IMG/VR virus record: IMGVR_UViG_3300025011_000002
Direction: 5' to 3' (one strand)
Origin: a virus
Lineage: Duplodnaviria > Heunggongvirae > Uroviricota > Caudoviricetes
Length of the DNA stretch: 64,000 nucleotides
Below, one piece after another: positions 35,548 to 58,741 of the stretch; position 1 is the first letter of the stretch; each line of letters opens with the position of its first letter. The notes under the pieces are model-generated. The model was not told the DNA's origin. It searched no databases and saw only the letters and a program-made list of their open reading frames with translations. The position numbers and the translations under genes are program-made.

Positions 35548-36006
35548 ATGACGGATAAAGAAATAAATAAATTTAATCAGCATAATGAAGAAATATATAA
35601 AAAATTATTATATATTAATAAAGATAATCTTTATCTTGTTGAAAATCTTTGTAAATATGATTTCTTTTACGAATATAAAAAAAATAATTATATTTTAGAT
35701 GCGAATGTTTCTTTTATGTCTATGAGTGATTTACAATTAACATTGGATGATTCTATCTATGTTTTACAAGATTTAGAAGATATATATAATTATAATTTTA
35801 TAAATTTTCAAGACTTGGAAGAAATAATTAGAAAAGATAGTTATTTTGAAACTTCAATGGTAGATTCATTATTATATGCAAGTGTTGTTGAAGAGTATCA
35901 TATTACTTGTAGTGTGAGTGAATTAGTTATAGAAATAATGGATATAGCAAGAGTATATCATAATACAATTAATAAAATAATAGATGTTAGAAATAGATGT
36001 AAATAA
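35548..36006 (+). CDS. hypothetical protein
   Basis: 152-aa ORF. Confidence 0.35.
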   Translation: MTDKEINKFNQHNEEIYKKLLYINKDNLYLVENLCKYDFFYEYKKNNYILDANVSFMSMSDLQLTLDDSIYVLQDLEDIYNYNFINFQDLEEIIRKDSYFETSMVDSLLYASVVEEYHITCSVSELVIEIMDIARVYHNTINKIIDVRNRCK

Positions 36007-36019
36007 ATGGAAGATAAAA

Positions 36020-38797
36020 ATGATAAGTAAAGAAGATGTTCTAAAATTAAAAAAAGCTATAGATATAATTCCATTTTATGAAAGATATTTAAAATTAAAA
36101 AGAATAGGTTCATCTTATTTTGCAAGATGTCCATTTGGAAAACATACAGATTCGACACCAAGTTTTTCTATTTTACCAGAAAAAAATGGTATATTTAAAT
36201 GCTTTGGATGTTTGCCAGAATATCAAGAAGTAAGAACGGAAAATGGAATTAAAAAAATAAAAGATATTGTTATTGGAGAAAACATCTATACTTTAGATGG
36301 AAATTTAACAAAAATAATAAATAAAAAAAATCATAAATCTGAATATAATATTATAAAAATTAAAACAGCTAATTCTTATGAATATTCTTATTATACAGCC
36401 AATCATAACATGTTTTATATTTCAAAAGAACAAGCCGTAAATTCTTTACCTTTTTTAAGAAATGAAAATGATAGAGACAATTTAAAGTTTTATAAAAGAA
36501 TGAAAAAAAGAGATGATAAATATAAATTAAATATTGAACAAGGATTTGCTGAAAATATTAAATATGAAGACTATTTTATATACCCATCTACAAGAGAAGA
36601 ATTAAAAAAAGATGGTATTTCTTTTAAAAATTTAAAAACAAAAGATATAAAAGAAATACCATTAAATGAAGATATTATGTGGTTATTTGGGTTATATATT
36701 GCAGAAGGAAGCGTATATAGAGGTGGTGTTAAATGGTCTTTACATATAAAAGAGATTGACTATGCTCTTAGAATTAAAGATATATTAAAAAAATATTTAA
36801 ATTTAGAAGCATCAATATATAAATATGACAATAAGCCTAATTCTTTAGAAATTGGATGCTCTAAAACAGATTTAGAATTAATTTTCTCTAATTTATTCGG
36901 CAATGGCTCAATAAATAAAAAATATCCATATTATTTTAATTATTTATCTTTAAATCTAAGAGCATCTTTATTTAAAGGAATGTTTGATGGAGATGGATGT
37001 TATTCTAATAATAAATATACTACTATTAGCCCAATATTAAAAGATTTATTTTTTGACTTAAGTATAAGTTTAAATAAGATACCTAGTATTTATTCTTATA
37101 CTAATGAGAATAAACAAACATCATATCTTATTTATATTAAAAATAGAGAATCAGTAAAATCATTTTTTTATTATATTAATGAAATAAAATATTTATTTTT
37201 ACAAATAACCGATATTAATAAAATAGATAAATGTAATAATGATGTTTATGATATAACTGTATCTCACTATTCTCATTCATTTTTATCAAAATATTTTATT
37301 GTTGGAAATTGTGGAACAAGCGGAGATGTAATATCTTTTTATCAAAGAATAGAAAATCTTTCATTCTTTGATGCAGTAATACAACTTGCAAAAGATTATA
37401 ATGTTGAAATAAAAATAAATAAAGAATTAAAACAAGAATATGCTAAAAAGAATTTATTATATAAATTTAATAAACATGTTTTAGATATTTACAGAAATAA
37501 TTTAAGATATAATACTTCTGCGTTAAAATATCTCATAGAGGAGAGAAAAATATCTTTAGATATGATTAAATCATTTAAGATAGGAACAACCCTTAATGAC
37601 GACTTACATATCGTATTATTTAAATATAAAAGTATTCTTGAAGAATTAAAATTAATTACAGAAAAAAATAATGACCATTTTAGAAATAATAGAATTATGT
37701 TCCCTTATTTGGATGAAAAATTTAATATATCTGGATTTAATTCAAGAGCTATTAATGAAGATAATATAAAATATTTAACATCTAAAACATCACCTATATT
37801 TGATAAAAATAGGGCTTTATATGGCATACACTTAGCTTTAAAAGAAATAATGGAAAGAGCTGCTGTTATTTTAGTTGAAGGTCAATTTGATTGTATAAGA
37901 TGTCATCAAGAAGGTATCAAAAATTGTGTTGCTGCATCTGGACTTGCTTTATCAGAAGAACAAGTAAAATTTTTAAATAAATATGTTAAAACATATTTTA
38001 TTTGTTTTGATAATGATGAAGCAGGGAATGAACAATTAGAAGCAACATATATTCAAATAAATAAAATTAATCCATATGCAAGGGTTAGAATTATAGAATT
38101 ACCTAAGCCTATAGGTAAGAAAAAAATGGATTTGGATGAGTATTTATTAAATAATGATAAGTCTGAATTTCTTAAAATTGCATTAGCATCTAAAAATTAT
38201 AATGAATATTTTATAGAGAAAGTATTAAAAGATGTTAATTATAAGACAATTGAAGAAAAGAAAAAATATGTTTATATCTTAAAAGATAGATTACTTAGTA
38301 TAAGTTCTATTATTGATAGAAATCAATATATCTCTATGGTAGCTAATAAGTTAGAAATACCAGAAATTGATATACATAATATTTTAAAAAATAAAGAAAA
38401 ATATGATAATAAACAGAAAAATTCTGATAAAATTAAAAAAATAGAAAAAAGAAATATATCTGCTCAAAAATATCTTATTTCTTTATTATTTTCAGAACAT
38501 AATCCTTACGATATATTAAAAATATTTGAAGAATTAGATATATATAAGCATTTTGAACCAATGTATTATAATATTTTTAAATATATTGAAAAACAATGGT
38601 TGCAATCTAATGGGATAGATGATATAATAGATAATGTAACAATGAATTTTAAATCAGATGAATCAAAACAAGCGGTTATAGATATTCTATTTAAATCAAA
38701 TGAATTAAATTATTATGATAATGATGAAATAAAAATATTTATAGAAGACCAAATAAGTACATTAGAAGAGTCTGAAGAAGAGAAAGAACATGAGTAA
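36020..38797 (+). CDS. dnaG: DnaG-type DNA primase interrupted by an intein
   Basis: CHC2 zinc finger 'CPFGKHTDSTPSFSI...FKCFGC', resumed after the insertion by 'GTSGDVISFYQ...LSFFDAVIQLA'. TOPRIM 'ILVEGQFDCIRCHQEG' and 'FICFDNDEAGNEQ'. Start taken at MISKEDV to avoid overlap with the upstream ORF. Confidence 0.8.
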   Translation: MISKEDVLKLKKAIDIIPFYERYLKLKRIGSSYFARCPFGKHTDSTPSFSILPEKNGIFKCFGCLPEYQEVRTENGIKKIKDIVIGENIYTLDGNLTKIINKKNHKSEYNIIKIKTANSYEYSYYTANHNMFYISKEQAVNSLPFLRNENDRDNLKFYKRMKKRDDKYKLNIEQGFAENIKYEDYFIYPSTREELKKDGISFKNLKTKDIKEIPLNEDIMWLFGLYIAEGSVYRGGVKWSLHIKEIDYALRIKDILKKYLNLEASIYKYDNKPNSLEIGCSKTDLELIFSNLFGNGSINKKYPYYFNYLSLNLRASLFKGMFDGDGCYSNNKYTTISPILKDLFFDLSISLNKIPSIYSYTNENKQTSYLIYIKNRESVKSFFYYINEIKYLFLQITDINKIDKCNNDVYDITVSHYSHSFLSKYFIVGNCGTSGDVISFYQRIENLSFFDAVIQLAKDYNVEIKINKELKQEYAKKNLLYKFNKHVLDIYRNNLRYNTSALKYLIEERKISLDMIKSFKIGTTLNDDLHIVLFKYKSILEELKLITEKNNDHFRNNRIMFPYLDEKFNISGFNSRAINEDNIKYLTSKTSPIFDKNRALYGIHLALKEIMERAAVILVEGQFDCIRCHQEGIKNCVAASGLALSEEQVKFLNKYVKTYFICFDNDEAGNEQLEATYIQINKINPYARVRIIELPKPIGKKKMDLDEYLLNNDKSEFLKIALASKNYNEYFIEKVLKDVNYKTIEEKKKYVYILKDRLLSISSIIDRNQYISMVANKLEIPEIDIHNILKNKEKYDNKQKNSDKIKKIEKRNISAQKYLISLLFSEHNPYDILKIFEELDIYKHFEPMYYNIFKYIEKQWLQSNGIDDIIDNVTMNFKSDESKQAVIDILFKSNELNYYDNDEIKIFIEDQISTLEESEEEKEHE
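36209..37309 (+). mobile_element. intein with LAGLIDADG homing endonuclease inside dnaG
   Basis: 367-aa in-frame insertion between 'FKCFG' and 'CGTSGDV'. Starts 'CLPEYQEV', block B 'TANHNMF', LAGLIDADG motifs 'LFGLYIAEGS' and 'FKGMFDGDGC', ends '...FIVGN' with +1 Cys. Flanking exteins rejoin to the canonical CFGCGxxGDVI primase motif. Confidence 0.7.
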
Positions 38798-39506
38798 TAT
38801 AATAGGACAAAAATTTGAAAGATTAGAAGTTTTATCTAAATCTTATAGAAATAAAAATAGCATTCAATATTATGAATGTAAGTGTGATTGTGGTAATATT
38901 ATAAATACAAGAAAATATTGTTTAATATCTGGAAGTACAAAATCATGTGGATGTTTACATAAAGAAAAAGTATCAACTCACAATATAACAAAAACTAGAT
39001 TTTATAGAATATGGCAAAATATTAAAACTAGATGTTTAAATAAAAATCATACATATTATAAAAATTATGGAGAACGTGGTATAAATATTTGTGATAGATG
39101 GCTAAATTTTGATAAATTTAAAGAAGATATGTATGATAGTTATTTAGAATATGTAAAAGATTTTGGAGAAAAAGATACAAGTATTGATAGAGAAAATAAT
39201 AATTTAGGATATTCAAAAGATAATTGTAAATGGTCTACTTGTGAAGAACAGGCAAGCAATAGAAGAGAAATAAATTGGGATAAAGCAAAATTTAAAAACC
39301 AAAAATTATTTAAAGCTATTTCTCCAGAAGGTATAGAATATATTGAAATAAATCAAAGAAAATTTGCAAGAGAATATGAATTAGATAGTAATAGGGTAAA
39401 TAGTTGTTTAAATAATCATCAAAAAACTCATAATAATTGGAAATTTAAATATTTATCAGATGATGAAATAAATAATTTTTTGGTATTAAAACAAGATGAA
39501 GTGTGA
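38790..39506 (+). CDS. homing-endonuclease-like protein, paralog family member 5
   Basis: 'KFERLEVL...YECKCDCGN...SGSTKSCGCL', 'TRFYRIWQNIKTRC...YKNYGERGINICDRW', 'SIDRENNNLGYSKDNCKWST', 'FKAISPEGIEYIEINQRKFAREYEL'. Confidence 0.5.
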   Translation: MSNIIGQKFERLEVLSKSYRNKNSIQYYECKCDCGNIINTRKYCLISGSTKSCGCLHKEKVSTHNITKTRFYRIWQNIKTRCLNKNHTYYKNYGERGINICDRWLNFDKFKEDMYDSYLEYVKDFGEKDTSIDRENNNLGYSKDNCKWSTCEEQASNRREINWDKAKFKNQKLFKAISPEGIEYIEINQRKFAREYELDSNRVNSCLNNHQKTHNNWKFKYLSDDEINNFLVLKQDEV

Positions 39507-41448: not shown

Positions 41449-42420
41449 ATGAAATTTTTAAAACATAATGATAAAATATTAATTACTGGAGGAGCTGGGT
41501 TTATAGGGTCTCATTTAGTAGATGTCCTTATAACTAATGGTTATAAAGTTGTTGTTGTAGATAATTTATCTAATAGTAATATTAATAATATAAAACACAA
41601 TTTAAATAATCCAAATTTTATGTTTTATAATGATGATATTACCAATTTAAACATATTAAATAAAATTTTTAAAGAAGAAAATCCAAAAATTATATTTCAT
41701 TTAGCTGCTAATTCAGATATTGCAAAAAGTCATTATAATCCAGGAATTGATTTTAAAGATACATTATTAACTACTTATAATATTTTAAATGCCATGAAAA
41801 ATAATAGTATTTATAAAATCGTATTTGCATCTACTTCAGCGGTTTATGGAGAATTAAAAGGCAAACTGTCTGAAGATTCTGGTCCTCTTTTACCTACTTC
41901 TCATTATGGGGCTTCTAAATTAGCTTCCGAAGGTTTTATATCAAGTTTTGTTGAAAATTATAATATCAAAGCTTGGATATTTAGATTTCCAAATGTTGTT
42001 GGTCCAAGAGCAACACATGGCGTAATATATGATTTTATTAATAAATTAAAATATATGCCTGAAAATATAACAGTTTTAGGTGATGGAAATCAATATAAGC
42101 CATATTTATATGTTAGTGAATTAATAAAAGCTATATTATTTGTATTAAACAATACAAATGAAAAAATAAATTTATATAATATAGGCAATACGACAAGAAC
42201 TTATGTAAAAGATATTATAAAAATGACTATAAATGAAATGAATTTAAAACATATAACTAATATTATTTATACTGGAGGAAGTAAAGGTTGGATTGGAGAT
42301 GTATCAGAATTTGAATATTGCTTGGATAAGATACACAATCTGGGTTGGAGAGCAAGTATGACATCTGATGAAGCTGTAAGAAAAGCTATTATAGAAAATA
42401 TTGGAGATTATTTAGTATGA
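41449..42420 (+). CDS. NAD-dependent nucleotide-sugar epimerase/dehydratase (SDR family)
   Basis: 'ILITGGAGFIGSHL' Rossmann motif; catalytic 'SHYGASKLASE' (YxxxK). Confidence 0.75.
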   Translation: MKFLKHNDKILITGGAGFIGSHLVDVLITNGYKVVVVDNLSNSNINNIKHNLNNPNFMFYNDDITNLNILNKIFKEENPKIIFHLAANSDIAKSHYNPGIDFKDTLLTTYNILNAMKNNSIYKIVFASTSAVYGELKGKLSEDSGPLLPTSHYGASKLASEGFISSFVENYNIKAWIFRFPNVVGPRATHGVIYDFINKLKYMPENITVLGDGNQYKPYLYVSELIKAILFVLNNTNEKINLYNIGNTTRTYVKDIIKMTINEMNLKHITNIIYTGGSKGWIGDVSEFEYCLDKIHNLGWRASMTSDEAVRKAIIENIGDYLV

Positions 42421-43184
42421 ATTTAGAGGAGCTTAAAACCGTAGGGTTTGTTCCGCATAATTCTATTATCAATGCAGATTGTCTTGAGGCAATGAAATAT
42501 ATTCAAGACAAAAGTATTGATATGATTTTATGTGATTTGCCTTATGGAACGACAGCTTGTAAATGGGATACAATCATTCCTTTTGAGCCACTTTGGGAAC
42601 AATACAACAGGATTATAAAAGATAAAGGCGTAATTGTCCTAACATCACAAGGTATATTTACCGCAAAATTAATATTAAGTAATGAAAAATTTTTCAAATA
42701 TAAAATTGTATGGGAAAAATCAAAATCTACTAATTTTTTAAATGCAAAAAAACAACCTTTAAGAAAACATGAAGATATTTGTGTTTTTTATAAAAATCAA
42801 CCAAACTATTTTCCTCAAATGAAAGAAGGTTTGCCATATAACAAAGGAACAAGAAAAGCTCAACTAACGGGAAGCTATGGAGATTTTAATCCAGTTCTTG
42901 TTAAAAGTGAAGGCAGTAGATACCCAACAGATATTATTTATTTTAAAACTGCTGAATCAGAAGGGGATGTTTATCACCCCACTCAAAAACCAGTAGCCCT
43001 CTTTGAATATCTAATAAAAACATACACAAACGAAGGTGATTTGGTTCTTGATAATTGTGCAGGAAGTGGAACAACGGGTGTGGCATGCTTAAATACAAAT
43101 AGAAATTATATTTTAATTGAAAAAGAAAAAGAATATATTGATATAATTAATAAAAGAATTGAGGAAAATAAATGCAACTTGTAA
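42417..43184 (+). CDS. DNA methyltransferase (N6-adenine/N4-cytosine, beta class)
   Basis: Motif IV 'ILCDLPYGT' precedes motif I 'VLDNCAGSGTTGVAC'; this is the N6_N4 MTase order. Confidence 0.65.
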   Translation: MNLEELKTVGFVPHNSIINADCLEAMKYIQDKSIDMILCDLPYGTTACKWDTIIPFEPLWEQYNRIIKDKGVIVLTSQGIFTAKLILSNEKFFKYKIVWEKSKSTNFLNAKKQPLRKHEDICVFYKNQPNYFPQMKEGLPYNKGTRKAQLTGSYGDFNPVLVKSEGSRYPTDIIYFKTAESEGDVYHPTQKPVALFEYLIKTYTNEGDLVLDNCAGSGTTGVACLNTNRNYILIEKEKEYIDIINKRIEENKCNL

Positions 43185-43876
43185 TTATAGCTGGTGGCAA
43201 AGGCACAAGACTTGGCTTAAAAGATATTCCAAAACCTATGGTGTTATTGGGTGATAAGCCTATTATACATCATCAAATAGACTTGGCTATAAGACATGGT
43301 ATAAAAGATATAGTTATTATAGGAGGTTATTTATCCGAAGTTATTGTTGATTATTTTAAAGAGGATATGCCAAATGGTATAGATTTAACTATCATACAAG
43401 AATTAAAACCAATGGGAACAGCAGGAGCTTTACATTCTGCTAAATCAATATTACAAGATAGATTTATGGTATTTTACGGTGATTTATATTTAGATTTTGA
43501 TATTAATAAATTTATTGAGTTTTATGAACACATTAGAGCGTCTGCTACAATAATTGTTCAGCCAAATGCCTATCCAGATGAAGCAGACTTATTAGAGGTG
43601 GATAATATGGTTGTAAAGAATATTTATCCAAAACCAAGAGGCAAAGATAAAGAATATAAAAATATATCAAATGCTGCGGTTTATATATTTGATAGAGCAA
43701 TACTTCATTTTATAGATTCTACAGAGCCACAAGATTTTGGCAAAGATGTGTTTCCAAGAATGTTGAATAATGGTGTTTCAATTATAGCTTATGAGACAGA
43801 TGAGATATTAAAAGATTTAGGAACTTTAGAAAAATTAGAAGGTGTTAGAAATGATTATTTCAAGAACTCCATTTAG
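43172..43876 (+). CDS. hddC: sugar-1-phosphate nucleotidyltransferase (HddC-like heptose-1-P guanylyltransferase)
   Basis: 'MQLVIIAGGKGTRLG' N-terminal signature; size 234 aa. Confidence 0.65.
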   Translation: MQLVIIAGGKGTRLGLKDIPKPMVLLGDKPIIHHQIDLAIRHGIKDIVIIGGYLSEVIVDYFKEDMPNGIDLTIIQELKPMGTAGALHSAKSILQDRFMVFYGDLYLDFDINKFIEFYEHIRASATIIVQPNAYPDEADLLEVDNMVVKNIYPKPRGKDKEYKNISNAAVYIFDRAILHFIDSTEPQDFGKDVFPRMLNNGVSIIAYETDEILKDLGTLEKLEGVRNDYFKNSI

Positions 43877-44816
43877 AATAAGTTTTGCTGGTGGCGGTAG
43901 TGATTTAAAAGAACACTATAAAAAATATGGTGGTGCTGTTTTGTCTGTCACAATAAATAAATATATATATCTTTCAATGCATCCTTATTTTGAAAAAGAT
44001 AAATATATTCTTAAATATTCAGAAATTGAAAAAACTAATTCAGTTAATAATATTCAACATAGAATTATTAAACAAGTTTTTAAAAATTATAATATAAAGG
44101 GAGTAGATTTTAATTCAAGTGCAGACATTCCATCTGGAACTGGATTGGGTTCTTCGTCTGCATTTACAGCAGGATTAATAAACTTATGTAATTCATATAA
44201 CAATGAAAAAATAAGCAAAGAAGATATTGCCAATGAAGCTTGCGATGTTGAGATAAACCAATTAAATTGCCCGATAGGAAAACAAGACCAATATGCTTCA
44301 ACTTATGGAGGATTAAACTTTATATTATTTAATCAAGATTGTTCTGTTACAGTTAAAAAGACTAATATGATTGAATGGAAAAAAGATAAATTGGAAAATA
44401 ATTTATTGTTATTCTATCTTGGCAAAACAAGGTCAGCAGACAAGGTTTTAAATACATATAATAGTAATAATAATAATTTAATAAAAATGGTTGACTTAGC
44501 ATATAGTTTAAATTCATCACTAAGTAAGAATAATATAGATTCAGTTGGAGATATTCTACATACAGGATGGATGTATAAGAAAGAGTTATCATCTGAAATA
44601 AGCAATACAGATATAGATTATTATTATAATTTAGCCATTAAAAATGGGGCAGAAGGTGGGAAACTATTAGGTGCTGGTGGGGGAGGATTTTTATTATTTT
44701 ATGTCAAAGAGGAAAATCAAGAGCGATTAAGAAATGTTTTAAGCGTTCTGAAAGAAGTAAGTTTTAAGTTTGAAGACAAAGGAGCAAGTATAATATATGA
44801 TGATGACGATAGATAA
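43842..44816 (+). CDS. hddA: GHMP kinase, D-glycero-alpha-D-manno-heptose 7-phosphate kinase-like (HddA)
   Basis: N-terminal 'RTPFRISFAGGGSDL'; GHMP motif 'PSGTGLGSSSAFTAGL'. Confidence 0.7.
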   Translation: MLEMIISRTPFRISFAGGGSDLKEHYKKYGGAVLSVTINKYIYLSMHPYFEKDKYILKYSEIEKTNSVNNIQHRIIKQVFKNYNIKGVDFNSSADIPSGTGLGSSSAFTAGLINLCNSYNNEKISKEDIANEACDVEINQLNCPIGKQDQYASTYGGLNFILFNQDCSVTVKKTNMIEWKKDKLENNLLLFYLGKTRSADKVLNTYNSNNNNLIKMVDLAYSLNSSLSKNNIDSVGDILHTGWMYKKELSSEISNTDIDYYYNLAIKNGAEGGKLLGAGGGGFLLFYVKEENQERLRNVLSVLKEVSFKFEDKGASIIYDDDDR

Positions 44817-45357
44817 TTATTTTGACAGATTAAAAAAGACTATTGATAATATTGATAAAGAAGAGATAAAAAATGTTGTAAATATACTTTTAAAAGCAAG
44901 GGCTAATGAAAAGCAAATATTTATAATGGGTAATGGAGGAAGTGCATCTACGGCTTCTCATTTTGCTTGTGATATAAATAAAGGTACAAAACAAAAAGAT
45001 AAAAAACCGTTTAGGGTAATATGTTTAAATGATAATATACCTACAATGTTGGCTTATGCAAACGACAGTAATTATGATAATATTTTTATAGAGCAGTTAG
45101 AAAATCTATTAAAACCAGGAGATGTCGTAATCGGAATATCTGGAAGTGGAAATTCTAATAATATTATAAATGCAATTGGATTTTCAAATTTTTTAAAAAT
45201 AACAACTGTGGGAATAACAGGCTTCGATGGGGGAATGTTAAAACAAATGAGTAAGCATTCTATTAATACAAATATAGATGATATGCAGATTTCTGAAGAC
45301 ATACATATGATATTGGTTCATGTAATAATGAAAGCTATATTGAATGAAAAATTATAA
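44797..45357 (+). CDS. gmhA: SIS-domain phosphoheptose isomerase
   Basis: 'IFIMGNGGSASTASHFACDINKG'. Confidence 0.75.
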   Translation: MMMTIDNYFDRLKKTIDNIDKEEIKNVVNILLKARANEKQIFIMGNGGSASTASHFACDINKGTKQKDKKPFRVICLNDNIPTMLAYANDSNYDNIFIEQLENLLKPGDVVIGISGSGNSNNIINAIGFSNFLKITTVGITGFDGGMLKQMSKHSINTNIDDMQISEDIHMILVHVIMKAILNEKL

Positions 45358-46099
45358 ATTAGTTGTTTTATTTGCACAATATGGTAATGAACAATATCCT
45401 GATGCACATAAAGATTTAGATAATTTTTTAAAAGATATTAATTGTAGTAAACAAAAAATTATAATAGATAATAAAACTGCATGTGATTATGATTATGTTT
45501 TTCCAAATGGAAATATTTATATACAAGGAGATAATTCAGCATGGGAATTTAGTGCTTGGGATAAGGGATTAAAATATGTTAAAGATTTAAATGTAGAATA
45601 TGATGCAATATTATTTGTAAACAGTTCTTTTATGAACAGCAGAATAAAAGGAATTGGTGGAAATCCAAAAACAGTTATAAATAATGAGTCAATAAGACTT
45701 TGCATTGAAGATAATAAAGCTATATTCCCTTGGCTCACAACAGGGGATAAATATTTTAAATTAGATAATAATGATGTAAGTTCTTGGTATAGAACAAATT
45801 GTTTCTTGTTAAATAAAAATCATATTAACGTCTTGCAATTTATTCAAACATATGATATAATATATTTAGATAAATTCATTAATAAAGAAATATCAGACAA
45901 TTATTTTAAAGCTGACGCTCCAATGAACAAGATATTAAAAGATTTTATAATATGGAGATTAACAGAAAGTTGGCATAATCCAATAGATATAAAAGAATCT
46001 TGGTCATTATTTAAAATGAAAACATTGGGATATTTTAATGAGTTTGGTTTAACGGCACGATTAAGGAATTGCAAAATAAATGTTATTTCAGAACAATAA
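45344..46099 (+). CDS. hypothetical protein, paralog of 48813..49856 (possible glycosyltransferase)
   Basis: Shares 'YKLVVLF.QY...YP', 'GDNSAWEFSAWDKGL.Y.K', 'YDAILFVN.SF', 'NWH' blocks with 48813..49856. Confidence 0.35.
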   Translation: MKNYKLVVLFAQYGNEQYPDAHKDLDNFLKDINCSKQKIIIDNKTACDYDYVFPNGNIYIQGDNSAWEFSAWDKGLKYVKDLNVEYDAILFVNSSFMNSRIKGIGGNPKTVINNESIRLCIEDNKAIFPWLTTGDKYFKLDNNDVSSWYRTNCFLLNKNHINVLQFIQTYDIIYLDKFINKEISDNYFKADAPMNKILKDFIIWRLTESWHNPIDIKESWSLFKMKTLGYFNEFGLTARLRNCKINVISEQ

Positions 46100-47261
46100 A
46101 AAAATAAAAATTGTTTTTTTATTTCAAGTTGCTTCGTTCTGGGCATCATGGGATTCATTCTATAATGAGTGTATAAAAGATGATAGACTTGAAATAAAAA
46201 TGGTTTTATTTGATGAAGAAATTTGCGAAAAAAGTCAAATGAAAACTGCAAGGGTGTTTTTAGAAAAAAATAATATTTCATTTATAGAATATAAGGATTA
46301 TAATATAGATAAAGATTGTCCTGATATTTGGGTGATGCAAACGCCTTATGATGAAGGGCATAGACCACTAGAGTTAAGGTCTGACTATATAAAAAACAAA
46401 GGAATAAAGATTGTTTATATAACTTATGGAATAGAAATATCTAATACTGTTGAATCAATAAATGCTCACTTCTTAAAAGGTGTTCCACAGAATGCATGGA
46501 AAATATATACTTTTTCTCTATTAATTAAAAAAGATTATGATAAATATATATCTCCAGAAATAACAAGAGCATTAGGGCATCCAAAGTTTGATGGATTGTA
46601 CAATAAAAATAATTTTCCATTGCCAGAAAATATTAAACAAAAAGCAAATGGAAGAAAAATTATATTATGGAAAGTTCATTTTCCAAAGATATTTTCAATA
46701 CCAAATACAGATAAAATTCATTATGTTACACCAGACTTTGAAGAATATAAAAAATTTTTAAATGAAATAAAAAAACATAAAGATTTATATTTTATATTTA
46801 TGCCTCATCCAAAGTTTTTTGAAATGATTTTAGAATACAATATTTTAAATGAACAAGAAATTAAAGACTTACAGAATGAATTAAACAGTTATGATAACTT
46901 ATATATGTATTTAGAAGATGATTATAGACCTATAATTTTGAATGCAGATTGTATAATTACTGATAGGTCTGCAATAATGGTAGAGGCATCGGTAGCAGAA
47001 AAGCCAATATTATATATGTATAATAATAAAAATATAGAGGCTATGACAGATGCTATATCTGAATTAATAAATACATATTATACTGGTGACACTTGTGAAG
47101 ATATGATAAATTTTATAGAAATGTTTAAAAGAGGTGAAGATATAAAAAAACAAGAAAGATTAAGTGCAATAAAGAAATATATTCCATTTTTTGATGGAAA
47201 TGCAGGTAAAAGAATTAAAGAAGATATTATATCTTCTTTTGAAAATGAAGCGATGGAGTAA
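46080..47261 (+). CDS. CDP-glycerol glycerophosphotransferase (TagB/TagF)-family protein
   Basis: 'ADCIITDRSAIMVEASVAEKPILYM' resembles the TagF-family C-terminal signature. Confidence 0.4.
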   Translation: MLFQNNKKIKIVFLFQVASFWASWDSFYNECIKDDRLEIKMVLFDEEICEKSQMKTARVFLEKNNISFIEYKDYNIDKDCPDIWVMQTPYDEGHRPLELRSDYIKNKGIKIVYITYGIEISNTVESINAHFLKGVPQNAWKIYTFSLLIKKDYDKYISPEITRALGHPKFDGLYNKNNFPLPENIKQKANGRKIILWKVHFPKIFSIPNTDKIHYVTPDFEEYKKFLNEIKKHKDLYFIFMPHPKFFEMILEYNILNEQEIKDLQNELNSYDNLYMYLEDDYRPIILNADCIITDRSAIMVEASVAEKPILYMYNNKNIEAMTDAISELINTYYTGDTCEDMINFIEMFKRGEDIKKQERLSAIKKYIPFFDGNAGKRIKEDIISSFENEAME

Positions 47262-47264
47262 ATA

Positions 47265-47840
47265 ATGGATTTAAATTTTACAGGTGAAAGACAGGTAAGT
47301 AAAACACTAGAGGGTATTGAAAAAAAACATTTAGATAGATATTGTTTTGCTAAAAATAAGGTAAGAGAGTTATTATCAAAAGATAATATAAAAATATCTG
47401 ATATTGGTTGTGGTATTGGATATGGTTCATCTATATTATCTGAACTTAATTGCTCTATTGATTCATACGACATATCAAAAGAAGCAATTGATTTTGCTAA
47501 CAAATATTATAAGAAAGACAATATAAATTATTTTACAAAAGACTGTTCTGATTCTGATTTTTTAACAAAACATTATGATGTAATTGTGTCTTTTGAATTT
47601 TTAGAACATATTAATATTGATAAATCTAAAAAAATATTACATAGAATTATTGAAAAAAGCGATTTATCAATTATATCTATCCCTATAAATAAGCCTTCGC
47701 CTTTTCATAAAATAGTATTAAAAAAAGAAGAAGTTAAACAATACTATGACGAGGCGTTGAAAAGTTTTTCAAATAAACATATAATAGAAGAATGGATTCA
47801 AGATACTATATTTTACATAGTAGTAATAGGATTAAAATAA
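47265..47840 (+). CDS. class I SAM-dependent methyltransferase
   Basis: Motif I 'ISDIGCGIGYGS'; 'VSFEFLEH'. Confidence 0.6.
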   Translation: MDLNFTGERQVSKTLEGIEKKHLDRYCFAKNKVRELLSKDNIKISDIGCGIGYGSSILSELNCSIDSYDISKEAIDFANKYYKKDNINYFTKDCSDSDFLTKHYDVIVSFEFLEHINIDKSKKILHRIIEKSDLSIISIPINKPSPFHKIVLKKEEVKQYYDEALKSFSNKHIIEEWIQDTIFYIVVIGLK

Positions 47841-48823
47841 TGACAATATATTTTAGAACACCCGAAAACCCAAACCCTTGTGGTGGCATAAAAAAGTTAT
47901 ATGACCAAACAGATATTCTTAATAAAAATGGTATTGAGGCATATGTAATTCACTTTGATAAAACAGAAACTTTTAGATGCGATTGGTTTGAAAATGATAC
48001 AAAAATAGTTTATAATAAAACACTTATTCAAGAAGATGATATAGTTGTTATCCCAGAAATATATGATTACCATATGTTTAATTTATTCCCTAAAGGCAAA
48101 AAGGTTATATTCAATCAAAATGCTTATAATACATTCAGACCATATGGAACAATAAATGATAATAGTATATTAAATTATAACAATCCCGACTTGCTTGGAG
48201 TTATGGTTGTTTCTGAAGATAATAAAAAATATTTAGAACTTGCTTTTCCAAATAATAAAATTTACAGGATTCATATATCAATCGACACAGATAAATTCTT
48301 TCCAAAAGAAAATAAGAAAAAACAAATATGTTATATGCCGAGAAAAAATAAACAGGATGTTGACCAAGTAATAAGTATTTTAAAATTAAGAGGTTACTTA
48401 AAAGATTATAATTTTGTGGCTATTGAAAATATGACAGAAGAAGAATTAATAAAAACTTATCAAGAATCTGAAATATTTTTAAGTTTTGGTTATCCAGAAG
48501 GTTGTGCAGCTCCTCCACTTGAAGCAATGGCTTGTGGATGTATAGTTATTGGATATACAGGAATGGGATGTAGAGAATATATGAATACAGATTATTCTTT
48601 CCCAATTGAACATGGGGATATAGTCTCTTTTGTAAAAACAATAGAAGAAAAGATTTATTCATTTAATGCAATTAACAACTGCCCTTATTATAATGAATTT
48701 GAAAATTTAAACAACAAAGCTATTAAATTTATAAAAGAAAATTATACAAAAGAAAGAGAAAAATCAGATATATTAAATTTTTGGAACGAAATATTAAATA
48801 AAGGAAATAATAATGTATTATAA
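47840..48823 (+). CDS. glycosyltransferase (GT-B fold, GT4-like)
   Basis: 'EGCAAPPLEAMACGCIVIGYTGMGCREYM' matches the GT4 C-terminal motif. Start moved to internal ATG (MTIYFRT) to avoid overlap. Confidence 0.6.
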   Translation: MTIYFRTPENPNPCGGIKKLYDQTDILNKNGIEAYVIHFDKTETFRCDWFENDTKIVYNKTLIQEDDIVVIPEIYDYHMFNLFPKGKKVIFNQNAYNTFRPYGTINDNSILNYNNPDLLGVMVVSEDNKKYLELAFPNNKIYRIHISIDTDKFFPKENKKKQICYMPRKNKQDVDQVISILKLRGYLKDYNFVAIENMTEEELIKTYQESEIFLSFGYPEGCAAPPLEAMACGCIVIGYTGMGCREYMNTDYSFPIEHGDIVSFVKTIEEKIYSFNAINNCPYYNEFENLNNKAIKFIKENYTKEREKSDILNFWNEILNKGNNNVL

Positions 48824-49856
48824 ATTAGTTGTACTTTTTCTACAATATGATTCAGATAAGTATCCAAATTCTTTATTTTATTTACAAAAATATTTAAGCA
48901 GAATAAGTCAAAATGATGTTCAAATAATAGTTATAGATAATAAGCAAAAAGTAAATTATAAAGAAAGAATCGAAGATTATTATTATGGCGAACCAATTAC
49001 AATATCAGGAGACAATACTATTTGGGAGTTTTCAGGATGGGATAAAGGATTAGAGTATCTTAAAGAAAATAATATTGATTATGATGCAATACTTTTTGTA
49101 AATGATTCATTTTTAGCTCCATCAGGTTATGATTCTCCAATAACAATAATAAATGATGAAAATATATTTGATTGTATAAAAAACAACAACATTATCGGAA
49201 ATATATGTAATGTAGGAAATGGATTTAAAATAGATAAATATAATGTAAAAAAATATATAAGGACTCATTGCTTTATGCTATCTAAAGACTCTGTTGAAAA
49301 GATAAAGACTCTTGTGACTTTGGATATTAATTTTATTAACAGATGTATAAATAATATTTCAACTAAGTTCTATTTCTTAGGTAAGGCTCCAATTTGTATA
49401 GACACAATGAAGAATATTGTCGTTAATTTAACTCAAAATTGGCATAGCAAATTCAATATTCATGATAATTGGGGATTATTTAGAATGAAATCCTTAGTAA
49501 TGCTTAATGAATTAACATTATATACAAGAATATCCAGTATAATAGGAGATAATAAAGTACAAATGAATATAAAAGAGCTTATAAACAATATTCCAAATGA
49601 TAAAAAAATAGTATGTGTGGGAGCTGCAACAAATGCTCACAAGATGATGAAGGAAAGTGACTTACCAAAGAAGAATGTGGTTGCATTTCTGGATAACTAC
49701 ATTAAGGGAGATATTAATGGAATACCAATATATACACCCGAAGAGTTCGTTAATAAAAAGATAAATTATGACTTTGCAATTTTTTGTATGTTCCAACCAG
49801 AAACGATTAAAAATCAATTAGATAGCTTAGGAATTATAACAAAAGATGAATATTGA
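48813..49856 (+). CDS. hypothetical protein, paralog of 45344..46099 with a C-terminal extension
   Basis: Conserved blocks shared with 45344..46099. Confidence 0.35.
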   Translation: MYYKLVVLFLQYDSDKYPNSLFYLQKYLSRISQNDVQIIVIDNKQKVNYKERIEDYYYGEPITISGDNTIWEFSGWDKGLEYLKENNIDYDAILFVNDSFLAPSGYDSPITIINDENIFDCIKNNNIIGNICNVGNGFKIDKYNVKKYIRTHCFMLSKDSVEKIKTLVTLDINFINRCINNISTKFYFLGKAPICIDTMKNIVVNLTQNWHSKFNIHDNWGLFRMKSLVMLNELTLYTRISSIIGDNKVQMNIKELINNIPNDKKIVCVGAATNAHKMMKESDLPKKNVVAFLDNYIKGDINGIPIYTPEEFVNKKINYDFAIFCMFQPETIKNQLDSLGIITKDEY

Positions 49857-50466
49857 TAAAAATAATACCCTCATTATATTTAGTACAGGCGATTCTAATT
49901 ATAATGAATTAAAAGAACATATTATCCCTTTACAGCAAAGTTATGATACGTTGGGTCTTAATATGTTTAATTGTTTCCATTATGGCTGTACATATTGGAA
50001 TTGGAATGATAGATTTTTATTTAGAGATTGTTTATATGAACATTATATAGAAATAGAAGACAATAAAAAGCCTTTATTAGTTACTACAGACGAAGTAACT
50101 AAAAGAGAATTTATTAATAATAATATAAAACCATATTATACTTATGAAGCAACAACAAAATATATACCTACAAATAAAGAGGATAATAAATTATATATAT
50201 TTAAAGCCAGTTTGCATACAGCCATTAATACAGCCATTGTTGAGGGTTATAAGAATTGCATTATATTATTTGCTGATTTATCTTATGATAAGCATGCCCA
50301 TTTTTATGATTCAGAAGAAACAAAAAATAAGATGCAACCAAGACCAACTAAAAGATTAAATATAATGAGAGAATCTTTATATAATTTTAAACAATATGCA
50401 AATATTTATAAAACAAATCATAATGATTTAGATTTAGAATATATTGATATAAAAGAAATTATATAA
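49846..50466 (+). CDS. hypothetical protein (full-length copy of duplicated gene flanking the NAD island)
   Basis: 206 aa. N-terminal 'MFNCFHYGCTYWNWND' and C-terminal 'RESLYNFK...NIYKTNHNDLDLEYIDIKEII' are near-identical to 55800..56210. Confidence 0.35.
   Translation: MNIDKNNTLIIFSTGDSNYNELKEHIIPLQQSYDTLGLNMFNCFHYGCTYWNWNDRFLFRDCLYEHYIEIEDNKKPLLVTTDEVTKREFINNNIKPYYTYEATTKYIPTNKEDNKLYIFKASLHTAINTAIVEGYKNCIILFADLSYDKHAHFYDSEETKNKMQPRPTKRLNIMRESLYNFKQYANIYKTNHNDLDLEYIDIKEII
50368..50466 (+). repeat. ~99-bp direct repeat (copy 1) bracketing the NAD island
   Basis: Near-identical to 56112..56210, with differences clustered in the first ~40 nt. A further 51-nt perfect match lies at 49960..50010 versus 55927..55977. 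Confidence 0.6.
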
Positions 50467-51983: not shown

Positions 51984-52835
51984 ATGTTAGATTTACATAA
52001 AGATTTTGAAATATTTAACTTTCCAGGTGGAGAAGTTAATGTAAGATTAAAAAATTTTCCAACAGATGATTGTTTTATTGTAACATTAATAGCAAGATTA
52101 AAAAATTCTAACGATATAATGTCATTATTATTAGCTGTGGATGTATTAAAAAGAGAAAATGTTTTTATTAATGAATTAATAATACCATATTTTCCATATG
52201 CAAGACAAGATAGAGTTTGTAATAAAGGCGAAGCATTATCTGTTAAAGTTATAGCAGATTTAATTAATAGTTTAAATATACCAAAAGTAACAATATTAGA
52301 CCCACATTCAGATGTAACTCCTGCATTAATTAATAATGTAAATATTATTAGTCAAGTAGAATGTTTTACTAAATCAATGTGGAATTTTGGTAAATCTAAT
52401 TTAGAAATTAGAAATGATTATTATATTATTTGTCCTGATGCTGGAGCAAGAAAAAGGATTGATACTATAGCTAAAGAAGTGCAAACAGATAAGGTTATAT
52501 ATTTTAATAAAAAAAGAGATTTATTAACTGGAAATATTTTAGGGATAGATTCTGAATATCAAAATTTTAAAAATAAAAAATGTATTATTATTGATGATAT
52601 TTGTGATGGTGGTCGTACATTTATAGAAATAGCTAAATATTTAAAATCATATGATGCTGATGAAATTATTTTATATATTACTCATGGTATTTTTAGTAAA
52701 GGTCTTGAATGCTTAAAAGAAGCAGGAATAGATAAAATATTTACTACCAATAGTTATCAAGAAATTGATGATAGATATTTGAATAAAGGTACGGTTCCTC
52801 AAGTTTTACAATATGATATATTTCAAGGAATTTAA
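51984..52835 (+). CDS. prs: ribose-phosphate pyrophosphokinase (PRPP synthetase)
   Basis: 'IIPYFPYARQDRV' and PRPP-binding 'CIIIDDICDGGRT'. Confidence 0.8.
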   Translation: MLDLHKDFEIFNFPGGEVNVRLKNFPTDDCFIVTLIARLKNSNDIMSLLLAVDVLKRENVFINELIIPYFPYARQDRVCNKGEALSVKVIADLINSLNIPKVTILDPHSDVTPALINNVNIISQVECFTKSMWNFGKSNLEIRNDYYIICPDAGARKRIDTIAKEVQTDKVIYFNKKRDLLTGNILGIDSEYQNFKNKKCIIIDDICDGGRTFIEIAKYLKSYDADEIILYITHGIFSKGLECLKEAGIDKIFTTNSYQEIDDRYLNKGTVPQVLQYDIFQGI

Positions 52836-53129: not shown

Positions 53130-54641
53130 ATGAAAAAATTACCAGCAACATTACTTTGTGATTTTTATAAAATAAGTCATAGAGAACAATATGATGAAGA
53201 CACAGAACAAATTTATTCTACTTGGACTGCAAGAGGTTCAAGAATAGAAGGAATTAATAAAGTTGTTGTTTTTGGACTTCAAGGATTTATTAAAAAATAT
53301 CTTATTGATTATTTTAATGAGAATTTCTTTAATCGTTCTTGGCAAGAAGTTGTTTCTGAATATAAAAGAGTTATTAAATATACATTAAATATTGATAATC
53401 CAAGCATACAACATATATGGGATTTGCATGAATTAGGATATTTACCATTATTAATTGAAGCAGTACCAGAAGGAACAAAATTACCAATAAGAGTTCCATC
53501 AGCAACAGTAAGAAATACACATCCTAAATTTTTCTGGCTAACAAATTTTATTGAAACATTACTTTCATGTGAAACTTGGCAACCAACAACATCTGCTACA
53601 ATAGCGAATAGTTATAAAAATATATTAAAAAAATGGTCAGATAAAACTTGCGATAATGATTACCATGTTCCATTTCAAGGTCATGATTTTTCAATGAGAG
53701 GTATGCCTTGTTTAGAAGCAGCATGCACATCTGGAGCAGGACATCTTTTAAGTTTTGTTGGAACAGATACAATTCCTGCAATATTATATCTTGAAAATTA
53801 CTATAATGCGGATATTGAAAAAGAACTTGTAGGTACTTCTATACCAGCTACAGAACATTCTGTAATGTGTTGCAATGGAAGAGACGAATATAGTTCTATT
53901 AAAAGATTAATAACTGAAGTTTATCCAAATGGATTTGTTTCTATAGTTTCTGATACTTGGAATTTATGGGATATATTAACAAAAACATTACCAAAATTAA
54001 AAGATGAAATAATGAATCGTGATGGTAGAGTCGTTATAAGACCAGATAGCGGTAATCCTGTAGATATTATTTGTGGAACAAGAAGAGAAATAGAAACAAG
54101 AGAACTTTCAAATATTAATGAAATTAGAAAAGGTGTTATTGAGTCACTTTGGGATGTATTTGGTGGTACAATAAATTCAAAAGGATATAAAGTATTAGAT
54201 TCTCATATAGGGGCTATATATGGTGATGCTATCACTATGGAGAGAGCAGAAGAAATATGTAGTAGACTTGAAGAAAAAGGATTTGCAAGTAGCAATATTG
54301 TTTTTGGCATTGGTTCATTTACTTATACTTATAATACAAGAGATACATTTGGATTCGCTCAAAAATCAACATATGCTGTAAAAGGCGGTCAAGAAGTCTT
54401 CCTATATAAAGACCCTATAACAGATGATGGTCTTAAAAAATCACAAAAAGGCTTAGTTTATGTTTTGGATTTAGAAGGGAATATTACATATAAAGATGAA
54501 TTTAATATACAAGAGCATGAAAAATTACAACCATTTGGACTATTAAGACCTATATTTAAAAATGGAGAATTATTAGTAGATGAAAATCTTGCAGAAATAA
54601 GAAAAAGGGTAGAAGATAATGAATTATTACGATATTCGTAG
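53130..54641 (+). CDS. nadV: nicotinamide phosphoribosyltransferase (NAMPT/NadV)
   Basis: 'VVVFGLQGFIKKYL', 'IEAVPEGTKLP...KFFWLTNFIETLL', 'FQGHDFSMRG...SFVGTDT', 'IRPDSGNPVD' align with NAMPT conserved blocks. Confidence 0.85.
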   Translation: MKKLPATLLCDFYKISHREQYDEDTEQIYSTWTARGSRIEGINKVVVFGLQGFIKKYLIDYFNENFFNRSWQEVVSEYKRVIKYTLNIDNPSIQHIWDLHELGYLPLLIEAVPEGTKLPIRVPSATVRNTHPKFFWLTNFIETLLSCETWQPTTSATIANSYKNILKKWSDKTCDNDYHVPFQGHDFSMRGMPCLEAACTSGAGHLLSFVGTDTIPAILYLENYYNADIEKELVGTSIPATEHSVMCCNGRDEYSSIKRLITEVYPNGFVSIVSDTWNLWDILTKTLPKLKDEIMNRDGRVVIRPDSGNPVDIICGTRREIETRELSNINEIRKGVIESLWDVFGGTINSKGYKVLDSHIGAIYGDAITMERAEEICSRLEEKGFASSNIVFGIGSFTYTYNTRDTFGFAQKSTYAVKGGQEVFLYKDPITDDGLKKSQKGLVYVLDLEGNITYKDEFNIQEHEKLQPFGLLRPIFKNGELLVDENLAEIRKRVEDNELLRYS

Positions 54642-55602
54642 AGAGATTAAAGATTTAGTAAGACAAAAAGGAGGATTCTGTAATGCTCATTCTCATCTTG
54701 ATAAATCTTATACTTTAACGAAAGATAATAAAGATATTTGTAATAAACATTTAAAAAATAAATGGAATTTAATAGATAGTATAAAAAGAAATAGTACAAT
54801 ATATGATATAAAAGATAGAATAGAATATTCTCTTATAAAACAAACATTATATAATACTCATAATATTTTAACATTTATAGATGTTGATAGCGTTGCTAAA
54901 AGTACAGGTCTTGAGGCTTTAGAATTAGCTAAAGAAAATTATTTAGCAACGCAAATATATTCTGCTAATCAAACAATTAAAGGAATATTAAATAAAAAAG
55001 AATACGAATGGTTTTTAAAAGGAGCAGAACAATGTGATTTTATAGGAAGTTTACCTAAAGTAGATGATAATATAGAATTACATTTAGATATACTATTTGA
55101 TACTGCTAAAAATTTTAATAAACACATACAAATTCATTGTGACCAATTTTCTTTAATAGAAGAAAAAGAAACAGAATTAATATTAAAATATATAGATAAA
55201 TATAATTGGCAAGGCAAAGTATCATTAATACATTGTCTTTCTTTAGCTTCTCAAGAAAAGTCTTATAGGTATAAAATATATGAAAAATTAGAAGAAACAA
55301 GAACAAATATAATTATAGCTCCATTAATTTGGATTGATACACCAAGAAATGAAGAATTACAACCTCGTCATAATTGTTTAACTCCAGTAGATGAAATGTT
55401 AGAATTTAACATTAATATAGCTATGGGAACAGATAATATTTCTGATTTAAATGGTATGTTGTCAAATGGAGATATGATGGAAGAATTAATCTTTTTAATT
55501 CGAGCATGTAGATTATATAATAAAATAGAAGAATGTATTAATATAGCCACAATAAATGGTAATAAGATTATAAATAATAGATTAAATAATAATATAATTT
55601 AA
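54619..55602 (+). CDS. amidohydrolase-fold deaminase/hydrolase (CodA-like metal-binding motifs)
   Basis: 'CNAHSHLDKS', 'IQIHCDQ', 'LIHCLS', 'AMGTDNISD' match the H-x-H...H...H...D metal ligands of the amidohydrolase superfamily. Confidence 0.55.
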   Translation: MNYYDIRREIKDLVRQKGGFCNAHSHLDKSYTLTKDNKDICNKHLKNKWNLIDSIKRNSTIYDIKDRIEYSLIKQTLYNTHNILTFIDVDSVAKSTGLEALELAKENYLATQIYSANQTIKGILNKKEYEWFLKGAEQCDFIGSLPKVDDNIELHLDILFDTAKNFNKHIQIHCDQFSLIEEKETELILKYIDKYNWQGKVSLIHCLSLASQEKSYRYKIYEKLEETRTNIIIAPLIWIDTPRNEELQPRHNCLTPVDEMLEFNINIAMGTDNISDLNGMLSNGDMMEELIFLIRACRLYNKIEECINIATINGNKIINNRLNNNII

Positions 55603-58357: not shown

Positions 58358-58360
58358 ATA

Positions 58361-58741
58361 TTATACCCATCCTATAAATAAATTGTTATTATATTGTGCT
58401 GTTTGAGTTAAAACCAATGTATCATCTGATAAATAACTTTTCTTTTGATTTATACTATTATCTTCATTATAAGAAAATACTATATAGTTGTTATTTGTAT
58501 ATGTTTTTTGTATTACTTGGTTGTTGTCATTATAACCAAGAGAGAAATTACCAGAAAAAACATCTATATCTGCTTTTAGATTTAAAGCAGCAGACAAACC
58601 ATTTATAGTGGAAATATCCTGTGTATGTGATATCGGAGTTCTTGCATCTGAAAGTCTGAAATCATTTGTATCAACTTTGTTTAACAAGTCATTTGTCAAG
58701 CCTTTTATTTGATTTTGCTTTATTCTTTCTCTACCAGTCAT
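58361..58741 (-). CDS. hypothetical tail-associated protein
   Basis: 126 aa, N/Y/T-rich. Confidence 0.3.
   Translation of the reverse strand: MTGRERIKQNQIKGLTNDLLNKVDTNDFRLSDARTPISHTQDISTINGLSAALNLKADIDVFSGNFSLGYNDNNQVIQKTYTNNNYIVFSYNEDNSINQKKSYLSDDTLVLTQTAQYNNNLFIGWV

Follow-up and report, generated by a model that had tools for sequence, protein, structure and literature searches.

A phage gene block for probable GDP-heptose synthesis and glycan assembly, related to a bacterial envelope-glycan cassette

The DNA considered here is a 64,000-nucleotide stretch (the window) of a Caudoviricetes virus, IMG/VR record IMGVR_UViG_3300025011_000002, and lies inside a 123,264-bp phage contig (ENA ERZ27254729, k141_960484). 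On its + strand, between positions 41449 and 50466, eleven open reading frames (ORFs) form a block of ~9 kb in which most neighbours overlap by a few bases (Table 1). Judged by their families, these genes very probably serve the synthesis of GDP-heptose and the assembly of a glycan. All the ORFs that an earlier note on this DNA had named were present on the + strand where it had placed them, and profile searches (Pfam, NCBIfam, PHROG) matched its set of families. The extent it had proposed, 41449-49856, stands for the genes it named, whereas the right end has been moved to 50466, because the 206-aa (amino acid) gene also trails the homolog of paralog B in another phage contig, L004.

Table 1. 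The eleven ORFs of the block (SDR, short-chain dehydrogenase/reductase; SAM, S-adenosylmethionine; GT, glycosyltransferase)
Gene product	Position	Strand	Supporting match
SDR, probable GDP-heptose C4-epimerase	41449..42420	+	Pfam Epimerase PF01370, 3.5e-54
Orphan N6/N4 DNA methyltransferase, insertion	42417..43184	+	N6_N4_Mtase 4.2e-36; phrog_67
Sugar-1-phosphate nucleotidyltransferase, guanylyltransferase-like, HddC role, without GmhB domain	43172..43876	+	NTP_transferase 1.5e-28
GHMP kinase, HddA/WcbL (heptose-7-phosphate 1-kinase) family	43842..44816	+	GHMP_kinases_N and _C; NCBIfam HddA 5.1e-49; phrog_34407 9e-68
SIS-domain sedoheptulose-7-phosphate isomerase, GmhA-like subfamily	44797..45357	+	SIS_2/SIS; TIGR00441 (GmhA) 1.8e-30
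Paralog A, uncharacterised GT-A-fold transferase family	45344..46099	+	no Pfam model
TagF / UDP-GlcNAc-2-epimerase-fold (GT-B-type) protein	46080..47261	+	Glyphos_transf 36.4 bits, gathering cut-off 22.1
Class I SAM-dependent methyltransferase, probable sugar O-methyltransferase	47265..47840	+	Methyltransf_25, _11 and _23 above cut-off
GT4-type (GT-B) glycosyltransferase	47840..48823 (ORF opens 47792)	+	Glycos_transf_1 32.6 bits, cut-off 26.4; phrog_4356, phrog_2170
Paralog B, GT-A family, with ~100-aa C-terminal domain	48813..49856	+	40% identical to paralog A
Conserved 206-aa protein, function unassigned, likely module member	49846..50466	+	adjoins paralog B here and in L004

Two of the starts deserve a comment. 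Translation of the GT4 gene probably begins at M17 of its ORF, the start that matches the homolog in contig L001, to whose copy the protein is 71% identical from residue 17; that of the kinase probably begins at the ATG at 43851. No transmembrane segment was predicted in any of the 11 block proteins, and their net charges are neutral to acidic. Promoter-like and terminator-like sites around the block were at the level expected by chance in AT-rich DNA, and operon boundaries are not supported.

The sugar-activation enzymes were compared with solved structures by sequence. For the SIS-domain isomerase, 13 of the 15 matches in the PDB were GmhA, including the best four (top match 1tk9, 9e-24), and two were DiaA; the phage copies and those of the bacterial cassette described below all have residues H55, D59, E167, H170 and H175. 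The best four matches of the kinase were all HddA/WcbL (7e-40 to 6e-38, with 3k85 at 7e-40, 4usk and 4n3o among them), against only 1e-14 or weaker for galactokinase or fucokinase. The nucleotidyltransferase was closest to the GDP-mannose pyrophosphorylase GMPPB (7d72, 8e-21) and then to an HddC-type enzyme (6jq8, 4e-17, N-terminal half only), its top matches in both the PDB and NCBIfam being guanylyltransferases. The SDR aligned over 310 residues, at ~50% identity and 1.5e-75, with PhGal4E_1 of Pyrococcus horikoshii (8rdg), followed by 3ehe and 3icp. The description of the GDP-sugar 4-epimerase subgroup names 3EHE, and has the Pyrobaculum calidifontis enzyme represented as 3AW9 (PMC12171764). 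These structures lie within or near the subgroup, and the SDR is thereby a close relative of it: the Ser/Thr-Tyr-Lys triad (STS...YGASK) and 'THGVIYDF' are kept, P80 and R83 are not. It had earlier been described as an epimerase/dehydratase; the second half of that name is dropped here, as the protein has the STS...YxxxK motif of epimerases and no TDE dehydratase motif. Its substrate would probably be GDP-heptose, epimerised at C4.

Because the best family and PDB matches are to GmhA, HddA/WcbL, guanylyltransferases and GDP-sugar 4-epimerases, the pathway is likely to yield GDP-D-glycero-alpha-D-manno-heptose, which would then be epimerised at C4. The 'GDP-heptose-type' label of the earlier note is thus supported by the nearest relatives of all four enzymes. 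So is its remark that a GmhB-type phosphatase was not seen: tblastn of the window with three bacterial GmhB domains gave no match, and none was found in the ~82 kb of the 123-kb genome (64-kb window plus ~18 kb of flanking sequence) to which all genome-wide absences given below refer. Two candidates were discarded. The phrog_335 'phosphatase' at 21468-21944 is a Macro-domain protein, and an HAD_PNKP phosphatase encoded to the left of the window has no similarity to GmhB. The latter, a 162-aa protein, is encoded together with an MT-A70-type methyltransferase (L047, 12521-15112) alongside RNA-repair genes, and in the related phage L001 homologs of both proteins border the sugar cluster.

Related sets of genes occur in bacteria. 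The TagF-like protein has >200 homologs, mostly bacterial and 40-58% identical to it, and heptose genes stood beside the homolog in all four bacterial contexts inspected. In one of them (L010), genes for a GHMP kinase, an SDR, a nucleotidyltransferase fused to an HAD domain, an SIS-domain isomerase and the TagF-like protein are adjoined by those for an ABC-2 permease and its ATPase (Wzm/Wzt-type), a GT4 and a GT2. The same five-gene set was found in L041 (Paenibacillus vulneris, JBHSUK010000062) and L042, while L043 has at least the SIS-domain isomerase, two methyltransferases and the TagF-like protein. The five phage proteins are 36-58% identical to those of the bacterial cassette: the SDR is 45-49% identical to the SDRs of L010, L041 and L042, the kinase 50-51% to the cassette kinases, and the nucleotidyltransferase 36-38% to the N-terminal half of the bacterial nucleotidyltransferase::GmhB fusions (436-482 aa). 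Since the HAD domain of the fusions has the motif set of GmhB (DRDGTIN, VTNQ, CPHHP...CxCRKP), the bacterial cassette would encode a complete GDP-heptose route plus the epimerase.

Phage and bacterial versions have in common the same five families, with methyltransferases and C2185-like_N-domain proteins nearby. They differ in that the phage copy has no GmhB domain, lacks 110-190 residues that the bacterial TagF-like proteins have in addition, and is accompanied by neither an ABC transporter nor a primer gene; two members of the GT-A family come in addition, and the GC content of the phage copy is 25-29% against 37-42% in the bacteria. By sequence, the phage module clearly appears to derive from a bacterial envelope-glycan module, and to have shed the phosphatase domain that the bacterial cassette fuses to the nucleotidyltransferase.

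The block is also found in a second phage lineage (L001-L003 and L011, the latter being IMGVR_UViG_3300025000_000064, 123,605 bp), with 63-91% protein and 79-91% nucleotide identity, but the flanking genes of that lineage share just 32-38% protein identity with their counterparts in the genome to which the window belongs, and are differently arranged. This shows that the block moved between distant phages. In L001-L003 and L011 the SDR and nucleotidyltransferase genes overlap directly, with no DNA methyltransferase; that of the window is an unrelated insertion and stands outside the glycan module. The second lineage has an extra CmcI-type methyltransferase and up to four GT-A paralogs. L004 keeps the paralogs, the methyltransferase and the 206-aa gene, has a WsaF-like transferase and lacks the pathway genes. 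L006 associates a relative of the GT-A paralogs with a different sugar supply, which includes NeuB, a DegT aminotransferase and a thiamine pyrophosphate (TPP)-dependent enzyme, among others. The full sugar cluster of L006/L012 (a related phage contig of 78,560 bp) comprises genes for an HAD protein, the TPP enzyme, epimerases, a nucleotidyltransferase, the DegT aminotransferase, a pyruvyl transferase, a GT2, NeuB and a dehydroquinate synthase. The relative of the GT-A paralogs adjoins there a gene for a deoxynucleoside monophosphate (dNMP) kinase. The binning of L006/L012 in a metagenome-assembled genome (MAG) of Saccharibacteria is probably an artefact.

The two ORFs that had been left without a family, and taken for paralogs, are indeed paralogous (40% identity over 243 residues, E 2e-46). 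Their family is without a matching model in Pfam, NCBIfam or PHROG, and structural modelling predicts a GT-A fold for it. A word-based search gave 21 clusters of relatives, and a profile search of 1.84 billion representatives gave 1080, 763 of them at E <=1e-10. Conserved motifs are GDNxxWEFSGW, FVNDSF, WHS and K...NE. Distant members occur in bacterial polysaccharide loci (L007, L008 and L009); L008 also contains Wzm, Wzt with Wzt_C, a 1315-aa GT4 and methyltransferases. In L026, a Patescibacteria MAG, a member comes directly after an SDR-GHMP kinase-nucleotidyltransferase trio. Bacterial fusions link the family domain to GT4, GT2, GT9 (heptosyltransferase), HAD and class I methyltransferase domains, the last in P0172, P0167 and P0151. 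The C-terminal domain of paralog B weakly matches C2185-like_N (PF22674 region of P0059, pairwise E 0.001), a domain which recurs in bacterial heptose loci, and the methyltransferase adjoins paralog B in L001 and L004 too.

For the GT4 protein, the sole sequence match in the PDB was the Actinobacillus glucosyltransferase 8xsg (full-length, 1e-10). The fold of the TagF-like protein resembles UDP-GlcNAc 2-epimerases no less than TagF. The name 'glycerophosphotransferase', proposed for it in the earlier note, is unlikely to be right since no CDP-glycerol supply gene (TagD/TarI type), nor any teichoic-acid context, is present; besides, the 2-epimerase fold fits equally well and the bacterial homologs inspected all lie beside the heptose cassette. 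A heptosyl or heptose-phosphate transferase, or an enzyme that modifies NDP-heptose, is the probable identity. The 206-aa protein is 36% identical to its L004 homolog and has only five homolog clusters; it showed no similarity in Pfam, PHROG or the PDB. A supposed resemblance to Cst-II/MptE-like transferases was dropped, being supported neither by a PDB profile search nor by hhalign against an MptE-like protein. An internally deleted, 136-aa paralog of this gene lies at 55800-56210 (+), 61% identical over the N-terminal 100 residues and 76% over the last 41.

Family assignments and conserved synteny together suggest the following course of events. The GmhA-like isomerase would convert sedoheptulose-7-phosphate of the host into D-glycero-D-manno-heptose-7-phosphate, and the HddA-type kinase would turn this into the alpha-1,7-bisphosphate. 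The 7-phosphate would be removed by a host phosphatase, no phage GmhB having been found; the nucleotidyltransferase would then form GDP-heptose and the SDR epimerise it at C4. The TagF/2-epimerase-fold protein, the two GT-A paralogs, the GT4, the class I methyltransferase and possibly the 206-aa protein may assemble and O-methylate a short heptose-containing glycan, presumably in the cytoplasm, because all the assembly enzymes are soluble. The acceptor, the weakest step of the proposal, could be a lipid-linked intermediate of a host cell-envelope glycan, which the host machinery would export; the surface glycan of the infected cell would thereby be altered, for example blocking superinfection or the re-adsorption of progeny. 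Every informative bacterial context is a locus for lipid-linked, ABC-exported polysaccharide, and we tentatively favour the host envelope glycan as acceptor, ahead of virion proteins.

A number of points weigh against this reading. All pathway enzymes score under the NCBIfam equivalog cut-offs: the kinase reaches 167 bits against HddA (cut-off 600), the isomerase 106 against GmhA (TIGR00441, cut-off 209) and the nucleotidyltransferase 68 against HddC (cut-off 300), the latter over residues 1-115 only. For that reason the exact sugar and nucleotide are given as probable. The isomerase subfamily has Asp and Glu, both invariant, in place of a Glu and a Gln of GmhA (which we take to be Glu65 and Gln172 of the E. 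coli enzyme), although both catalytic/metal histidines are kept. Paralog A does not have the Asp of the NDS motif (NSS instead), and for the TagF-like protein 2-epimerisation of an NDP-sugar, instead of transfer, is possible. The proposed acceptor is chosen by analogy with the kind of substrate that the bacterial homologs would use. As the phage has no priming phosphoglycosyltransferase, exporter or ligase, a role at the surface needs a compatible host pathway. Neither integrase nor repressor was seen in the ~82 kb, and from the absence of the former the phage is probably virulent; to our knowledge, the known surface-converting modules belong to temperate phages. Those of the gtrABC, oac or wzy type comprise membrane transferases or a flippase and go with a lysogeny module, whereas the 11 block proteins have no transmembrane segment and no lysogeny module was met in the ~82 kb. 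Finally, phages RB69 and DLP3 arabinosylate their DNA by means of GT-B enzymes and a route in which isomerase, kinase, phosphatase and nucleotidyltransferase are phage-encoded (PMC13326640).

That the GDP-heptose and the transferases serve to decorate the virion itself, the capsid, tail or fibres receiving a methylated heptoglycan in the cytoplasm that shields or tunes the particle in the gut, is possible but rather unlikely. Precedents are the glycosylation of mycobacteriophage capsid and tail tube by phage glycosyltransferases and the capsid glycans of giant viruses, which contain methylated sugars. Virus-encoded soluble glycosyltransferases and sugar methyltransferases are common to these systems (mycobacteriophage; chlorovirus, mimivirus) and to the block, and giant viruses also own nucleotide-sugar pathways. 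A set of purely soluble, cytoplasmic enzymes with neither exporter nor primer gene would suit a cytoplasmic protein acceptor. The probable virulence of the phage counts on the same side. The type of sugar varies among related phages (L004, L006) while transferases and methyltransferase are kept, which is expected of an exposed, selected surface, and the end of the block is ~6 kb from the tail-fibre module. From 34958 to 56210 every gene is on the + strand, and their order speaks for another association: thymidine kinase, a 937-aa primase, an HNH endonuclease and a UvrD-type helicase precede the block, and a PD-(D/E)XK exonuclease, phosphoribosyl pyrophosphate (PRPP) synthase, NAMPT and an amidohydrolase follow it. 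The block thus sits in a replication array, co-directional with primase, helicase and exonuclease genes, and not in a late structural module as in the known virion glycosylation systems. Moreover, the homologs with informative context all act in bacterial loci for lipid-linked polysaccharide.

This same surrounding of replication and nucleotide-metabolism genes is what could suggest the transfer of a glycan or of a single heptose to a modified DNA base, as a protection against host nucleases, an alternative that we consider improbable. Known systems of DNA sugar-hypermodification in phages (the alpha/beta-GT of T4; arabinosyl-5-hydroxycytosine (5hoC) in RB69 and DLP3; the MT+5mYOX+GT clusters of Pyle et al.) likewise associate a sugar-activation route with GT-B enzymes in the replication region. 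RB69, DLP3 and HY126 encode an analogous set of SIS isomerase, kinase, HAD phosphatase and nucleotidyltransferase plus GT-B for DNA arabinosylation (PMC13326640), and heptose is itself a documented adduct: heptosyl-5-hydroxymethylcytosine was produced when a different phage gene cluster was reconstituted (bioRxiv 10.1101/2023.12.21.572611), so that DNA heptosylation would not have the novelty once attached to it. The dNMP kinase gene next to the GT-A paralog relative in L006 could be counted on the same side. However, no acceptor-base enzyme (ThyA-like hydroxymethylase, 5hoC synthase, C5-methyltransferase or TET/JBP/5mYOX dioxygenase) was found among the ORFs of at least 100 aa in the window and the called flanking genes (~82 of 123 kb), because of which DNA heptosylation is unsupported. 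Nor was a dNMP kinase or dCTPase found in the same ~82 kb, which offered no more than a MazZ-like domain and the pair of dUTPase and thymidine kinase that is expected with ordinary thymine. The argument that the earlier note drew from the embedded DNA methyltransferase fails, as the related phage has the syntenic cluster without this gene and an enzyme of the N6/N4 type makes no glycosyl acceptor. The transferases are neutral to acidic and closest to envelope-glycan enzymes. The TagF-like protein is structurally nearest to 2-epimerases and TagF, its TM-scores of 0.35-0.44 with DNA glucosyltransferases reflecting only a generic GT-B likeness, and at least five transferases plus O-methylation exceed what is found for the DNA glycans of PMC13326640 and bioRxiv 10.1101/2023.12.21.572611. 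Slighter still is the chance that the DNA is heptosylated, possibly with a methylated oligo-heptoside, on a base made by an unrecognised kind of enzyme or by a gene of the remaining ~40 kb; if true, no natural phage before it would have been shown to hypermodify DNA with GDP-heptose of its own making.

As to the sugar, it is doubtful that the isomerase, kinase and nucleotidyltransferase activate anything but a heptose, such as another ketose-phosphate-derived aldose, their labels coming only from the nearest characterised relatives: the sub-threshold scores, the two substituted active-site or metal positions of the isomerase and the restriction of the HddC match to the N-terminal half would allow it, but heptose enzymes are consistently the best matches, ahead of other sugar kinases by 10 to 25 orders of magnitude, the domain of the bacterial cassette has the full GmhB motif set, both GmhA catalytic histidines are invariant, and homologs in the cultured phages Cr30 and Bellamy carry the annotations phosphoheptose isomerase and heptose kinase.

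The preferred reading, synthesis of GDP-heptose for a glycan of the host envelope, can be set against known heptose systems. The GDP-D-glycero-alpha-D-manno-heptose pathway (GmhA, HddA, GmhB, HddC) was reportedly described in 2001, by Kneidinger et al., for the S-layer glycan of Aneurinibacillus thermoaerophilus, and it also serves Campylobacter jejuni and Burkholderia capsules. The block shares with it the four-step logic and the enzyme families, and the nearest solved relatives of its isomerase and kinase, while for the nucleotidyltransferase HddC comes behind GDP-mannose pyrophosphorylases. The differences are that the genes are phage-borne, that no GmhB was found and that the enzymes stay under the equivalog cut-offs. 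From the 6-deoxyheptose routes the block is set apart by its SDR, which is of the GDP-sugar 4-epimerase type and not a 4,6-dehydratase/reductase pair.

Among cultured phages, Synechococcus phage Bellamy (genes 211-222) and Caulobacter phage Cr30 (gp006-gp010) each have a phosphoheptose isomerase, a heptose kinase, nucleotide-sugar epimerase(s) and a glycosyltransferase in one block, to which Bellamy, like the window, adds a nucleotidyltransferase. Because the heptose genes of these phages are only 30-35% identical to those of the window, the acquisitions appear to be independent. Counterparts of the window's methyltransferase, TagF-like protein, GT-A family and set of at least five transferase-like genes are not annotated in the Bellamy and Cr30 blocks. 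Sequence comparison thus makes of the window cassette an independent and larger acquisition, apparently from a bacterial cassette which is itself uncharacterised. Both the kinase and the isomerase have PHROG families; our literature search found no paper that assigns a function to the heptose gene sets of Bellamy or Cr30.

Whole nucleotide-sugar pathways are known from phages, but few of them have a sugar whose target is established, such as glucosylation in T-even phages and arabinosylation in RB69 and DLP3, both of DNA, and the virion glycans of mycobacteriophages. Here, a probably virulent phage devotes ~7% of its genome to glycan synthesis, and offers a tractable case for asking why. Two of the enzyme families concerned have no characterised member, namely the GT-A family (~1080 clusters, no Pfam model) and the TagF/2-epimerase-fold family that accompanies the bacterial heptose cassette. 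Should the acceptor turn out to be a virion protein or DNA, the interest of the block would be substantially higher.

The phage that carries the block is a gut phage with a contractile tail (tape-measure protein, Baseplate_J, sheath initiator). Contigs of 50-200 kb with proteins from the edges of the window occur in 16-17 read blocks of an assembly collection. The GC content of the window is 22-34% (~25% overall), and the coding strand switches near 34.5 kb. Other genes include those for a DnaE-type polymerase, DnaB, DNA ligase, anaerobic ribonucleotide reductase and dUTPase; NrdD and NrdG point to no more than an anaerobic host. No close relative was found among GenBank phages, in which only short methyltransferase fragments were matched and to which the DnaE polymerase is <=35% identical.

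The tail-fibre module, 56378-63560 (-), includes a patatin-like phospholipase (62673-63560). Two of its proteins, at 56378-58357 (659 aa, of beta-helical look) and 58745-61024 (759 aa, with a 'WEIGNEDY' motif), were candidate glycan depolymerases by eye, but neither Pfam nor the PDB gave a sequence match for them. After the exonuclease gene, in the + strand array, come an NAD-salvage pair made of PRPP synthase (51984-52835) and NAMPT (53130-54641), then the amidohydrolase (54619-55602); an Amidohydro_1 gene also adjoins the paralog genes in L004. On the - strand, a 188-aa protein (24647-25213) has a 4Fe-4S ferredoxin domain as well as PF18909, which is the MazZ-like domain at the N-terminus of dATP/dGTP diphosphohydrolases. 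PHROG names it an endolysin, which is at odds with these Pfam domains, and a link with 2-aminoadenine DNA is unsupported because no PurZ-like gene was seen. A protein resembling SAM decarboxylase (28096-28599, -; PF02675, 9e-12), unusual in a phage, is encoded between the DNA ligase gene and an unassigned gene, and an SPFH/Band 7 protein (31515-32462, -; PF01145, 1.2e-27), labelled 'lipoprotein' by PHROGs, lies in the replication module.

The 937-aa primase (35984-38797) is seemingly interrupted by an intein, as judged by reading its sequence. Homing endonucleases of the HNH or GIY-YIG type number at least nine (5153-5848, 6950-7423, 8462-9157, 10397-11107, 15696-16322, 22210-22713, 26097-26450, 29555-30055 and 38790-39506), and one GIY-YIG gene stands between the NrdD and NrdG genes. 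An RNA-repair set occupies the - strand: RNA ligase (1176-2324), RtcB (2501-3733), ten tRNA genes (3728-7688), a CCA-adding enzyme (20162-21478) and the Macro-domain protein already mentioned (21468-21944).

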